A stretch of 64,000 bases of DNA, taken from IMG/VR virus record IMGVR_UViG_646311923_000012; one strand, given 5' to 3'. This document shows positions 1 through 6,000 of the stretch, in pieces. Position 1 is the first letter of the stretch. Each line of letters opens with the position of its first letter. Position numbers: made by a program. Source of the DNA: a virus. Lineage: Duplodnaviria; Heunggongvirae; Uroviricota; Caudoviricetes.

Positions 1-3000
1 AAATTAAAATACATTGTATAGGGAGTACTCTGAGGGCCAACAGTAACAGAATTTAGCACTACAGGATTGTGAAACCCTGGCCATAGATGGAAAGATAATG
101 CTATGGCTGATAAAACTATGCCAACTTCATATATAGATTTAGCCCAGGCGTTATATTTCCAGTTGAACTTCAAAATAATAAAAAAAACGATTGTAGCAAC
201 AAAAAATAACACCGACCAATCAATAATATCATTAAGCACAGCCAGGACAACAGACACCGTCAACAATGAAAAAGCCACTACCTTATGCCAACTGAGAGTT
301 GACAGTGACAGTACTAACACAATCCACATAAGCACTCCTTTTATTTAATGATGAAGATTGATTATCAATATTTTCAATTCACCAGGCAACATTTTATCTA
401 CCTTCCACAATACATGACCATCAAAAAATAAACATGTTAATTATAAACACAGAAAACATAACCCTCATCACTATATATCCCTACCGCATATCCATATCTA
501 ACCGGACATTCAGAGCCATAAGCATTCCTTCAATAATACCTTCCGCTTTATAAAGCCTTTTACCAATAAGCCCATCAGAACATCTATGCTTACGTGCAAG
601 AGCCATAAATGTCATTCCACCTACGTAATAATCCACCAACAAATCGTGCAAATACTGATTATTCTTGTTTAATCGTGCCATACAACCACAAATTATCATG
701 GCGTCATCATCAGAACACTGAGGACGTGATTTCACTTTAGTCGGGATTAATCCTTTAAAACCAGCAGCTATCGAGGGCCATGTTACATCTTCATGATTAT
801 TTGCTGCCCATGCCCCCCATCGCTCAAGAACCATCTGGATATCACGCGCCATCGTTACCACCTCTGATTTCGTAAATCTTCACGCCCAGCCGTCCACCTG
901 GCACAGGCTGACCGCGCACAATATTGATTTCATCAAACTGCTCGTCATCAATGAGCACTTCCGCATGCGTCAGCGCATCCAGCGGTGCTTTCAGAATGTT
1001 GTCCAGGTCACGGCGGCGCTTATCCGGTGGTTCTGCAATAATTTTTATTGCCAGCCGTCCGGACAGGCTTAATTTCAGCCGCTGCTGGCGAACAATAAGC
1101 GCCACAGCCCGGCGATAACGCTCACCGGCTTTTGATACAAAATATGTGCTGCCACGACGTCGCCAGTAGGTGTTCACCGTCGGCGGGTAAGGCAAAACAA
1201 ACTCTATACGCATCAGTAACCTCTTTTACCCGAGCACGCCGGTTGCAAAAGCGTGATCAAGAAAACGAAAAATTAAATCAACCTGGGAACCATGCTTTTC
1301 TTCGAACGCCAGCGGATCCGCATGAAGCTCGTTGTGATGCTCCCGACACAGCGGTAGCGTGAAAATATCGTGGGATTTTGTTCCCATTCCACCCTGACCA
1401 TGACCAATCAGATGATGAGGATCGTCCGCTGGCTTACCACAACACGCACACGGCTGTGTCTTTACCCAGCGTGTGTATTTCTCATTTACCCAGCGGCGAC
1501 GTTTAGGTCGTTTCATGAAGGATTCCGGAGACTCCGGATCAACGGCAATGCTGACCACCGTCTTTTCCTGTGGTGGGTTCTGTTGCTGGTGGGTGTGAGG
1601 CGGTAGCGCAATATTTTTTGTGCGCTGCTTCAGTATGCTGGTGGCGGTCTGTTCTCCCGGTATGATGTCGCTTTCACGGTATACGGAGCGGATTTTTTCC
1701 GCCGGTAATCCCAGAGAACGACGCGATACTGCCTCAGGTAATGCGTCCACCACCTGATTGCAGACTGCCCACCAGGATAATTCAGCCAGCGATAATTCCC
1801 GTTCCTGTATGCCATTCATTGCGTGGCGGATGACGTCAATCATCCATGCTGACAGGTTTTGTTGAGCAAGTTGCTCAAGTGATTCGGATGTCTGGTCGCG
1901 CAGCTGGTTGTCGCAGTGCCAGCACAACACCATCGCGCCGGTACCGTAACGATGTATGACAGTTTCGCTGTGATGATAATCACCATGAGGCCACTGGCAG
2001 GATTTAACGTGACGTAATAACCAGTCAGACAGTGCACCAGCGCCACCAGCAGCACGAATCACACGCTCATTGCTGAAAAATGGCAGTAATGATTTATCTT
2101 CCGCCAGCGGCTGGCGAACGGCAGGAACGACCCCGGACGGCAGATTACGCATGCTTTTCGGTTCAGACTCCACCAGCACCCTGCCGCCATGAAATACCCG
2201 CATGGATTCACGGCCTGGCTTAACGATAACCAGACCGAGTTCCGGTACCAGAACAGGTCGAAGTAATACCCGCACATTACCTCCAGATCCGTTGCTGGAA
2301 TGTGCGGGACGGACGCGGTGGCCGTTCGGAGTAAGGGAGCCTGACGGAGATTATCCAGTGACGGTAGTCGAGGCTAAGGGCTTTTTTAACCTCGCATCCG
2401 CGCCTGCGGTAACACTGAATGAGCCATTCGGCCTGTTCTTCAGTGCATGGGGGATGCTGGTACCAGTCAGATTTGAATGCGTGAAAACACCGTCCGCGCC
2501 TGCTGGCAAAGACGGCAGAATCATCAGAATTGTATAATTTGGTATCGTGCGCCATCGGTTGTCTCTGCTGGCGCAGCAGGTGCCAGTTGTTCAGGCTGGC
2601 GTGCGAATTGTAAACCAGAATGCCAGGAAAAAACAAAACCCGCCGAAGCGGGTTAAGTGCGGGTGCGTTGAGGATGCCTGACACATCAGAGGTGGCGAGG
2701 GATTTCTCCCCCGCCAGTCTCTTACTCCTCAGGTTCGTAAGCTGTGAAGACAGCGACCTCCGTCTGGCCGGTTCGGATTCGTACCTCGCAGAGGTCTTTC
2801 CTCGTTACCAGTGCCGTCACTATGACGGTTAAACAGATGACGATCAGGGCGATTAACATCGCCTTTTGCTGCTTCATAGCCTGCTTCTCCTTGCCTTTCG
2901 GCACGTAAGAGGCTAACCTAGATTTGCCGTTCATAGATTGAGCCTCAGATTAATGTTAAGCGTCTTGCAGGACGCGTAATGTTAACTGGGGCTTTTCTCT

Positions 3001-6000
3001 ATCTGCCGTTGGTGTTCATGCCCGAGGCAGATAGCCTCAAGCACCCGCAGCTATTCTACTTAACTTCCCATTACCTCGCCAATATGAAATCGGTCAGAAA
3101 GACAGACGTCCCATAAGGACAACAACGGAAAAAGAGATTTTGCTTGATGCTATTTACCTCTGCACCATGAAGTTGCGCCAAAATCCCAGTGGTGATAACA
3201 GGAATTTGGTTGTTGGTGATTGGGGAAAGAAGTACGTTAGACTGTGGGTTAGTTCATTGACATGATAGTTACCTGCCTTCAATTTCCTAAGCAAGCGATG
3301 TAAACGATAATCAATATCAAATGTATTGACAGGTAAAATAATAACGATGTACCTTTGCTGATAACATATATCAGTCTTAAATCATAATGGAGGTAGATAA
3401 AATAACTAAACACACACAACAAATTTTTTATCAGTGACATAGCATATCTTAAGCATCCTTTAATGCTCATGGGGAGAACGCATGACTAAACATATGGACA
3501 TTCATTGTCAAACACGCATATTTAACTCAATTAACCATGACACCAAATATAAAATATGTATTTTTACTCCAAAAAACATTAAAAAAAATAATGCAACTCT
3601 TTATATACTTGATGGGAATAGTGCCAACAATTACATTTCTGATATTCTGCCTGTTATTGATGCACTACCCAATCCACCAGTGTTAGTTACACTTGGTTAT
3701 GAATCTTGGAATAACCTTAGCATTCATCGCCGTGCTTACGATTATACTCCTGATGGTGAAAATGCTATTGTTGATAACTCTAAACCAGCATGGATCTACT
3801 TTACTGGTGGAGGAAGCCAGTCTTTCCGAGAATTATTACTAACTCAGATCATGCCATGGGTTAGTACTATTGCTCCGAACAGTTCCAGAATCGGTATATG
3901 GGGGCACTCGCTAGGTGCTATTTTTGTGCTTGATTGCTTAAAAAATAATTCATGCTTTAACTATTATTATATATCTGCACCATCACTTCTATGGCAGAAT
4001 GAAAGAATCATCAAGATAATTAAAGATGATATATCAGAATCAAAGCACACTAAAAGTATATGCTTGCTTAACGGAAATCTTAGCCTTGATTACTCCGCAT
4101 CTTTATATCCTGAAGCCATCAAAGCGGAATCTGTTTTGAGAAATATTTTGACAGAAAAATACAGTAATTTTTCTATTGTACAATTTCCAGAGCTCAATCA
4201 TCAGGAGACTTTCTCTGCTGCACTCTGGAATAGCATTATTCATTTCAGCATATAACAGAAAATATGTAATCACTTTATCAATCTAGCTAACATAACTGAT
4301 ATCAATCCTAATGGGTCTTTGAACATATTAAAAGATAACTTCTCATTTGTACATTGTTGTGTTCTTAGACCCATTTCAAAAATACTATTTTTTAGATACT
4401 AATAATTACATCCATTTAGCTATCTTCTAAATACTCCTCTCAGTTTCTTCATTGGAGCTGATTCAACTCCGGCAATGCATACTAGGATCATTTTATAAGC
4501 ATACAAACAACATCCAGACTGTGAATTATTGCTATTCATTTTCTATGTATCTGCTCTTTTCCCATCCACTGAAACACCAGAATCCAAAGGTTTCATGTTA
4601 TTTTCACTATTCCATCATTACTCCTGTGTAAAATATCAAAACTCGCTGCATCACTTCACTGTTACGGCACTCACTACAAATTATGTTCAATTGCCTGTCA
4701 TAGCGGCGTATTTCTCCGTCTGGTAATGACCAGATAAGGTCAGGATCAACCACAACCGGTTTCTTCAGTTTTGCCCTCGATAGTTTTTTGCGGGCGTTTT
4801 GCCAGTCCTTACGAGCCTGTTCAGATGGGAATAACCCGTAACCAGAGTTGTATACATCGCCACTGGCAACCAGCTCTCTGGCAAGAACGCTCATCAGATA
4901 TCTTGTCGCACCTGTCTTGGCTTCCAGTTGCCGTAACGTCTCGCGCCCACTCCGGCGTACTAGCTCAACAACCTGCCCTTTAATTTTTTCCCGCTCTTCC
5001 TGTGTAAATACTTTTGCCATAAGCGCCTCCGGCAATCACTTTTCCGATACAACACGGCGGGAAGAATCAGTAATCTGTCGAACAATATCCCGGTGCTTGT
5101 TCAGCTCCCGCAGCGCGGCGCAGACTCGCTCCCACTTCTGAACATCACTTTTCGCCCTGCGCAGCGCCAGGTTTGCCCTGCGAAGGGACGGAAAAATCAG
5201 CTCATCTGCTTGCGTTTCGGTAAACGATGGCAACGGCTGCACAATGTCCGCCACAGTTTCTGTTTTAATTTCTTCCTGTGTTGCGGCTTCCCGGACTGGT
5301 AACGCAGCACCTGCTGGCTGAGGAAAGGCCTTACCATCACTTTCCGTTACCAGCGCGGCTTTCGGCTCTGCTGGTAAATTATCGCCCGGCATGCAGTAAC
5401 GAAATTTACCGTTCTGATTAACGCGTGCCAGCCGCCCCGTTGCGGTTACCACCGCCAGCGTGGAAGCAACCTTGCGAGTACTGACACCGAACTTACCCGC
5501 CAGTTCCTCACACGTTTTAGCCCCATCCTGACCGATAAACTCAATCATCATGTCTGCGGTAACTTTTTGTTCGACCTCCCCGGTCAGCATATCCTGTGCT
5601 TCAGATTTTACTGGCCGCTCTTCGGTTACCCGGGATTCACCTTCGCCAGCCAGAAACCAGGTGTGACCAGTTTTATCAACGACGCCATTTATTTTGAGTT
5701 CCCACAGCTCGTTGACAGCCTCTTCACGACTGATTCCAAGGCGAGCTGCCACCACATGTGAAGAGGCTTTTTTCAGTGCTTTCAGTGCGTCAGATACGGT
5801 TTCCATTAAAATTTCCTCCGGACAAAATTACTTCACAACCCTCATATTGCTGACATTTGGACGCCAGCTATCCCAGTTAAACGTCACTCATCGACCACCG
5901 TTCATGGTCATGCGGTCCATAATCCTCTCACCAAGAAGTGTACTCATTGCGGCATGATTCAGGTTTGTTAACATCCCGACACTGCACAGTGATGCTGTCC

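Follow-up and report, generated by a model that had tools for sequence, protein, structure and literature searches.

We analyzed a stretch of viral DNA of 64,000 nucleotides (Caudoviricetes; IMG/VR record IMGVR_UViG_646311923_000012), referred to in its full length as the window, and focused on a gene for a 257-amino-acid (aa) alpha/beta-hydrolase that lies in an AT-rich island next to the hok toxin gene of a lambdoid prophage. Sequence comparison and a structural model identify this protein, hereafter the esterase, as a predicted lid-less member of the IroE/PfeE/BesA branch of siderophore esterases. The island in turn has the features expected of a moron (lysogenic-conversion cassette) in a prophage of the Sp4/CP-933M type. 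Taken as a whole, the reading that we favor, and to which we give somewhat better than an even chance, is that this prophage moron encodes a cytoplasmic IroE-type esterase that would act on a catecholate siderophore. The esterase does not amount to a new mechanism, and our main statements on its function are inferences. Known already are the kind of enzyme and the existence of cytoplasmic members such as BesA; new is a deep orphan, leaderless member that occupies a fixed moron slot and is widespread in enterohemorrhagic and Shiga toxin-producing Escherichia coli (EHEC and STEC, respectively).

Predicted fold and catalytic residues of the esterase

In a phmmer search of the PDB, IroE was the best solved sequence relative of the esterase, with a match over the full length (E = 5e-26). 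The next matches were BES (E = 9e-13), PfeE (E = 1.5e-11), and EstA (E = 1.5e-8), and fungal siderophore esterases were among the matches. An AlphaFold (AF2) model built on 65 family sequences reached a predicted local distance difference test score (pLDDT) of 90.8 and a predicted template modeling score (pTM) of 0.91. When this model was compared with the PDB using Foldseek, all of the 30 best matches were siderophore esterases or IroE-like hydrolases, comprising PfeE, EstA, EstB, IroE, BES, and an "IroE-like" protein, with template modeling (TM) scores of 0.72 to 0.80 and E values from 1e-19 to 6e-14. The initial annotation, made from the DNA sequence alone, had called the protein esterase-D-like, a description that proved too coarse. 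Esterase D and S-formylglutathione hydrolase (ESD/SFGH) share with it the broad PF00756 family and the alpha/beta-hydrolase fold, but they match far more weakly (Foldseek E of about 1e-10, TM 0.50 to 0.60, 11 to 14% identity) and were absent among phmmer matches in the PDB at E ≤ 1. Identity of the protein as ESD/SFGH was therefore rejected, as these enzymes rank far below the siderophore esterases in both fold and sequence.

The nucleophile elbow GHSLGA is intact and occupies residues 141 to 146. IroE has an atypical Ser189-His287 dyad. Its Arg130 reportedly serves as the oxyanion residue, anchored by Asp90. In the phmmer alignment to 2gzr_A, in which chain positions 90 and 50 are IroE residues 130 and 90, residues D44, R84, S143, and H240 of the esterase align with D90, R130, S189, and H287 of IroE, respectively. 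All four are invariant in a 13-sequence family alignment. A larger alignment of 65 family sequences shows no variation at D44 or R84 and at least 90% conservation of S143 and H240; all 19 intact copies of the gene found outside the window also keep the four residues. The mapping of catalytic residues that had been proposed as a check on the gene thus finds them, by alignment, at the positions of an IroE-like enzyme.

Comparison with characterized siderophore esterases

IroE (PDB 2GZR/2GZS), the salmochelin/enterobactin trilactone hydrolase of the iroA cluster, is about 27 to 30% identical to the esterase, and its Foldseek TM score is 0.77 to 0.81. The two proteins have in common the lid-less alpha/beta-hydrolase fold and the S143/H240 and R84/D44 pairs (S189/H287 and R130/D90 in IroE). 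IroE is a periplasmic protein with an N-terminal membrane anchor or leader and is encoded in the iroBCDEN cluster. Unlike IroE, the esterase has no leader, lacks a "PLGxNIADxGS" segment described below, and stands alone in a prophage.

PfeE of Pseudomonas aeruginosa belongs to the same lid-less family, and its chains were the top Foldseek matches (E of about 1e-19, TM 0.73 to 0.80). Identity of PfeE and of Cee (Campylobacter) to the esterase is about 20 to 23%, and both of these ferric-enterobactin esterases are periplasmic, unlike the location predicted for the esterase. The gene pfeE adjoins the receptor gene pfeA, and enterobactin induces pfeE via PfeS/PfeR (PMC8001512).

The Bacillus bacillibactin esterase BesA (BES, PDB 2QM0) has a TM score of 0.77 to 0.78 and about 19% identity in the structural alignment. 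BesA is a leaderless, cytoplasmic, IroE-like esterase of the Firmicute bacillibactin iron-acquisition system, and as such it is a precedent for a cytoplasmic member of the family. Fes and IroD, the cytoplasmic enzymes of E. coli and Salmonella, share the compartment and the type of reaction that we propose for the esterase, and their catalytic domains are related to it (Foldseek E of about 1e-10; TM score relative to the query [TMq] 0.66 to 0.70). Fes differs in its extra N-terminal lid domain and its Ser-His-Glu triad; the esterase consists of the catalytic domain only and is missing the lid domain of Fes and IroD.

The esterase lacks the leader of its relatives

Neither a hydrophobic stretch nor a signal peptide was found in the first 60 residues of the esterase. 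By comparison, 94 of 109 full-length family representatives (86%) extend further at the N-terminus and carry a hydrophobic stretch there. In these relatives, a hydrophobic leader of about 45 residues is followed by a conserved "PLGxNIADxGS" segment; the esterase starts just past the position of that segment, which it does not contain. Because it is without the hydrophobic N-terminal stretch of its relatives, the esterase is most likely cytoplasmic, and the earlier description of it as a cytoplasmic enzyme appears reasonable on this sequence evidence.

A leader hidden behind an upstream start codon was also considered and rejected. In-frame stops lie directly 5' of the ATG, and a longer N-terminus is therefore impossible. 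A Shine-Dalgarno sequence (GGGGAGAA) is present at 3471-3478, five bases 5' of the ATG, and both it and the start codon are conserved in all alleles.

The island has the properties of a prophage moron

The island at 3125-4606 has a G+C content (GC) of 0.341, compared to a window mean of 0.514 (standard deviation 0.059 for 1.5-kb stretches). It is the lowest-GC 1.5-kb stretch of the window, with 0.24% of stretches equally low. The marked AT-richness noted in the initial annotation was thus borne out, although the island measures about 1.5 kb rather than the 1.7 kb given there. It holds one substantial open reading frame (ORF), the esterase gene at 3482..4255 on the plus strand, as first described; the gene has a GC of 0.345 and a third-position GC (GC3) of 0.28. 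As also described, the island is flanked by hok and by the nin-type genes, of which the DUF977 gene is the nearest. The phage genes to either side all lie on the minus strand, with the Q antiterminator, RusA, DUF968, a small ORF, and mok/hok on one side and DUF977, DUF1627, and the replication genes on the other.

In related phages, the corresponding slot is filled differently. Approximately 43.9 to 60 kb of the window is occupied by another, related lambdoid prophage (prophage B). Here, in agreement with the first reading of the sequence, the slot holds ParD (54822-55142) and ParE (55148-55447), both on the plus strand and above Pfam cut-offs. In phage mEp460 (mEp460_ev081), the same slot holds a 449-aa hypothetical protein on the plus strand (4423-5772). 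On the basis of these two cases, the slot by the hok/small-ORF block of the nin region looks like a recurrent hot spot for cargo.

At the left border of the insert, a 102-nucleotide (nt) minus-strand segment gave 76 to 82% DNA matches to genes annotated "ORF6N domain-containing protein" or "phage antirepressor Ant." This remnant is confined to alleles of the window type and is missing from the 91% allele group described below; the alleles diverge completely there, and homology between allele groups starts at 3227. RefSeq labels part of the remnant as an incomplete "hypothetical protein." Since a piece of an ant gene remains, the cassette, inserted between hok/sok and the DUF977 gene, appears to have replaced most of an ant-like gene.

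Together, the lowest GC in the window, an orientation opposite to that of the phage genes, a slot with varying cargo, and the ant remnant mark the island as a probable moron; the surrounding phage genes are mosaic, with 72 to 100% identity. Like bor, lom, and the ParDE pair of prophage B, the island would be an independently oriented, compositionally deviant cargo at a recurrent nin-region slot, and it differs from these lambdoid morons in the type of cargo.

Distribution, alleles, and selection

The esterase gene is ECs1077 of Sp4, a lambda-like prophage of O157:H7 strain Sakai that adjoins yccA and also carries pchA. A presence/absence comparison, as had been suggested for the gene, found the segment 3300-4450 in 470 of 5426 complete E. 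coli genomes (about 9%), at 99% identity or more in 457. At least 80% of the segment was in one piece in 466 of the 470 carriers. These are mostly STEC (O157:H7, O145:H28, O103:H2, O26:H11, O45:H2, and O121), together with a few pig and fish isolates with genomes of about 5.0 Mb. The exact protein is found on at least 1000 contigs. The order hok, esterase (plus strand), DUF977 is constant in the window, Sakai, strain 2011C-4251, a pig isolate, and 19 IMG/VR prophage contigs, and in all 21 copies examined, the gene stands alone, without iroBCDN neighbors.

Three allele groups were distinguished (100%, 93%, and 91% nucleotide identity), all leaderless and all with the four catalytic residues. 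The ratio of nonsynonymous to synonymous substitution rates (dN/dS) among them is 0.16 to 0.22, with dS up to 0.32. These ratios, computed from allele sequences, indicate purifying selection on the esterase protein. Nineteen of 20 extra copies are intact.

Outside its own copies, the gene has no close relatives in the collections searched. Among 1.84 billion representative proteins, only fragments of the esterase's own cluster matched better than 1e-30, and the next best were 31 to 33% identical. The gene was found in none of 185,579 species representative genomes, where the best distant relatives were from Pantoea and Acinetobacter (30 to 34%). In INPHARED, no true phage record held a relative, with matches of at most 29.5% identity in non-phage or doubtful records. 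In a plasmid collection, nothing exceeded 34% identity except copies of the gene, and a genuine plasmid-borne E. coli IroE was about 29% identical. The search for a donor thus returned nothing above 34% identity in the protein, species-genome, phage, or plasmid collections besides the gene's own copies, and the esterase appears to represent a deep orphan branch that is restricted to prophages of E. coli.

The upstream region and possible regulation

The 255 nt 5' of the ATG, a presumed promoter and operator region, are conserved as strongly as the coding sequence (Table 1). Matches to the sigma-70 consensus there are weak, for example ATAACA-16-CATAAT at 3361-3388, and a promoter scan scored no better than shuffled sequences. 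A candidate Fur-box-like site lies 164 to 182 nt 5' of the gene and is the best match in the window. Three of 1000 dinucleotide-preserving shuffles of 3125-3520 attained its score of 15/19, and divergent alleles retain 14/19; a strict search for Fur boxes (≤3 mismatches) gave no match. The best promoter-like hexamers are overlapped by a palindrome that is identical in all distinct alleles aligned and that may be an operator for some regulator. Downstream of the gene, an inverted repeat may terminate the esterase transcript; its long loop sets it apart from a canonical intrinsic terminator. A search of Rfam found no known RNA within the island itself.

Table 1. Positions in the window of the esterase gene, its presumed control elements, and its neighbors
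Feature	Position	Strand	Remarks
mok/hok type I toxin gene, left neighbor	2722..2934	-	Pfam HOK_GEF E = 3e-23; RefSeq hokD = 2722-2877
hok/sok regulatory RNA region, Rfam sok model	2872..3046	-	RF01794, 107 bits versus gathering score 59, E = 9e-25
5' remnant of phage antirepressor (Ant/ORF6N-domain) gene, left insertion border	3125..3226	-	102 nt; translation ...PVITTGILAQLHGAEVNSIKQNL
Conserved upstream region, presumed promoter and operator	3227..3481	+	Allele alignments, 88-100% identity between allele groups
Candidate Fur-box-like site	3300..3318	+	GTAAACGATAATCAATATC; 15/19 to consensus, 14/19 on other strand
Palindrome CTGATA-ACATA-TATCAG	3358..3374	.	CTGATAACATATATCAG; invariant in 8/8 distinct allele sequences aligned
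Esterase gene	3482..4255	+	257 aa; ECs1077 of Sakai Sp4; WP_000160654.1; predicted leaderless IroE-family serine hydrolase, D44/R84/S143/H240
AT-rich non-coding spacer, esterase to DUF977	4256..4606	.	GC 0.31; only 76-78% conserved between alleles
Inverted repeat followed by T-rich run	4310..4375	+	16-nt arms; 8-bp core AATGGGTC/GACCCATT conserved
DUF977 gene, right neighbor, phage early (nin-type) region	4607..5035	-	Pfam DUF977 E = 4e-27

Discussion

The lambdoid prophages of EHEC O157:H7 and other STEC carry cargo that shapes virulence and fitness, and most of their morons are only generically annotated. The present analysis places a gene labeled "alpha/beta hydrolase" (PHROG 8493) as an intact gene under selection for a leaderless protein of the IroE type. 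In the mechanism that we propose, the esterase would be a cytoplasmic, lid-less serine hydrolase that cleaves the ester backbone of a catecholate trilactone siderophore. The substrate could be enterobactin, ferric enterobactin, linear dihydroxybenzoylserine (DHBS) oligomers, or a xenosiderophore of a related kind that is imported. If the esterase works as IroE does, Ser143 would be the nucleophile and His240 the base, and Arg84, held by Asp44, would stabilize the oxyanion. The enzyme would thereby be the lysogen's second cytoplasmic esterase, supplementing Fes. Its gene would probably be transcribed from a promoter of its own, in the direction antisense to the phage early operon, with possible control by Fur. 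Of the substrates suggested in the initial annotation, the siderophore is the sole one for which positive evidence was obtained; a host metabolite, an acetylated sugar, and a small-molecule signal gained none.

Beyond fold and catalytic residues, genomic context offers some support. One homologue (P0020, 31 to 39% identical) adjoins entE/B/A-like genes, two TonB-dependent receptor genes, and a FecCD-type ATP-binding cassette (ABC) importer. The candidate Fur-box-like site would fit control by iron. A published data set may bear on expression: Z1341 of strain EDL933, an uncharacterized CP-933M gene at or next to the position of the esterase, was reported to rise 2.5-fold when the bacteria met epithelial cells and fell into a cluster of up-regulated genes together with exbB and chuU (PMC2654852). 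Z1344 is RusA, and the esterase is Z1341 or a close neighbor, probably Z1341 or Z1342.

Several observations weigh against the siderophore proposal. Identity to any characterized esterase is at most about 30%, and substrate specificity is therefore not transferable. The Pfam family PF00756 ("Putative esterase") matches the protein only partially and below the gathering score (17 versus 22 bits, E = 0.005), and a search of NCBIfam with it gave no match, which accounts for the generic RefSeq label "alpha/beta hydrolase" (WP_000160654.1); in PHROGs, phrog_8493 is labeled "unknown function." The closest relatives, those of Pantoea and Acinetobacter, lie among unrelated, non-siderophore genes, and in a crude tblastn screen, no more than 21 of 80 related loci had a TonB-dependent receptor within 6 kb. 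E. coli already has Fes, and what it would gain from another cytoplasmic esterase is not obvious. The candidate Fur site is upstream of, and not clearly over, any convincing promoter. One of the 20 extra copies (L025) is frameshifted, and an IS1203 (IS1203/IS629) insertion sequence (IS) splits the gene in O26:H11 strain 11368; the gene is therefore dispensable in some lineages. Finally, the searchable literature contained no mention of ECs1077, its neighbors, or WP_000160654, and no expression data were found there.

The main alternative, which we judge to be unlikely, is that the esterase is cytoplasmic and acts on a substrate other than a siderophore; acetylated sugars, small-molecule signals, lactones, and xenobiotic esters are examples. 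An IroE-like scaffold would then have been recruited with its catalysis kept and its specificity changed. This idea is consistent with the deep orphan branch, with no relative above 34% identity among the 1.84 billion proteins and 185,579 species genomes, and with nearest relatives that stand alone, without siderophore neighbors. The absence of the "PLGxNIADxGS" segment of the periplasmic relatives points the same way, as does the plastic specificity of a family that spans catecholate and hydroxamate substrates. However, the 30 best structural matches comprise only siderophore esterases and IroE-like hydrolases, the unusual Ser-His dyad and Arg/Asp pair of IroE are intact, and a Fur-box-like candidate lies upstream, all of which argue for the siderophore.

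It is distinctly improbable, in our judgment, that the esterase serves the phage in competition. Under such a scheme, an altered siderophore or iron status would lower expression of the TonB-dependent receptors that superinfecting phages and colicins exploit, or the enzyme would detach the catecholate moiety of siderophore-microcins and "Trojan horse" compounds. The chemistry would fit an IroE-like enzyme, and the slot holds cargo of the addiction or defense type in related phages, with ParDE in prophage B and hok adjoining. The link to phage defense is a general inference. On the other hand, a protein without a leader would encounter neither microcins nor receptors in the periplasm or at the outer membrane, and a role as an anti-phage defense gene was rejected because no PADLOC defense model matched.

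We consider it very improbable that the gene is inert, a relic of a periplasmic IroE-like gene that lost its 5' part, is unexpressed or non-functional, and travels as a passenger with the prophage. The leader present in most relatives is indeed missing, H-NS usually silences AT-rich DNA such as that of the island, and the interrupted copies in strain 11368 and L025, together with the lack of expression data in the literature searched, would be expected of such a relic. Against it stand the low dN/dS at appreciable dS between alleles that are all leaderless, the 19 of 20 intact extra copies, and the 466 carrier genomes with the segment in one piece. The Shine-Dalgarno sequence, the start codon, and the 255 nt upstream are conserved as well, and the protein is predicted to fold with confidence. 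The initial annotation had named an inert passenger as the reading that would count against a functional gene, and the evidence of purifying selection and intact copies disfavors it.

Finally, that the protein is a type III secretion effector, or is otherwise unconventionally secreted, in E. coli positive for the locus of enterocyte effacement (LEE) is scarcely plausible: the support is distributional only (AT-rich prophage cargo mainly in LEE-positive STEC lineages, on a prophage that also carries pchA). Lambdoid prophages do not typically keep effector genes at this site, and the gene also occurs in the pig and fish isolates of about 5.0 Mb. In addition, the predicted protein is a complete siderophore-esterase fold of bacterial type and has nothing extra at its N-terminus.

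Returning to the siderophore proposal, its fullest form, in which a Fur-controlled, prophage-delivered cytoplasmic siderophore esterase alters the iron economy of EHEC lysogens, is tentative and in our view rather unlikely. If it holds, the enzyme may release iron from a xenosiderophore beyond the reach of Fes, or it may linearize enterobactin before export, which would lessen capture by host siderocalin. The gene would then be a lysogenic-conversion factor for fitness or colonization of Sp4/CP-933M-type prophages in O157:H7 and other major STEC serogroups, and activity on enterobactin-type siderophores would mean that, in a major food-borne pathogen, carrying the prophage is linked to the acquisition of iron. 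To our knowledge, no phage-borne siderophore esterase has been described, and none was found in the searches made. Should the enzyme not act on siderophores, the IroE scaffold would have been recruited to another substrate; either way, the "esterase D" reading is corrected.

Other features of the prophage and the window

The Rfam sok match next to hok is on the same strand as hok, not the antisense one; perhaps the model covers the overlap of the hok mRNA leader and sok in the orientation of hok. Just downstream of hok, between it and the ORF at 2277-2684, a sub-threshold Rfam match to isrK, an Hfq-binding Salmonella prophage small RNA, was seen at 2633-2714 on the minus strand (27 bits versus gathering score 50, E = 0.003). 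The prophage with the esterase also carries a RelB/RelE-ParE type II toxin-antitoxin pair by its repressor gene (window ~9656-10134; Sakai ECs1067-ECs1068) and thus has two addiction modules, this pair and hok/sok.

Collinearity of the window with strain 2011C-4251 and with Sakai Sp4 ends at approximately 16.5 kb. Given this break and the presence of prophage B from approximately 43.9 kb, the strain from which the window derives is arranged differently from the 2011C-4251 and Sakai genomes. The small region around the esterase has repeatedly been struck by IS elements. In strain 2015C-3163, an IS481-family element lies in the hok/sok regulatory region, and several O103:H2 genomes gave two-piece matches with an IS481-family transposase; in all of these, the esterase gene is intact.

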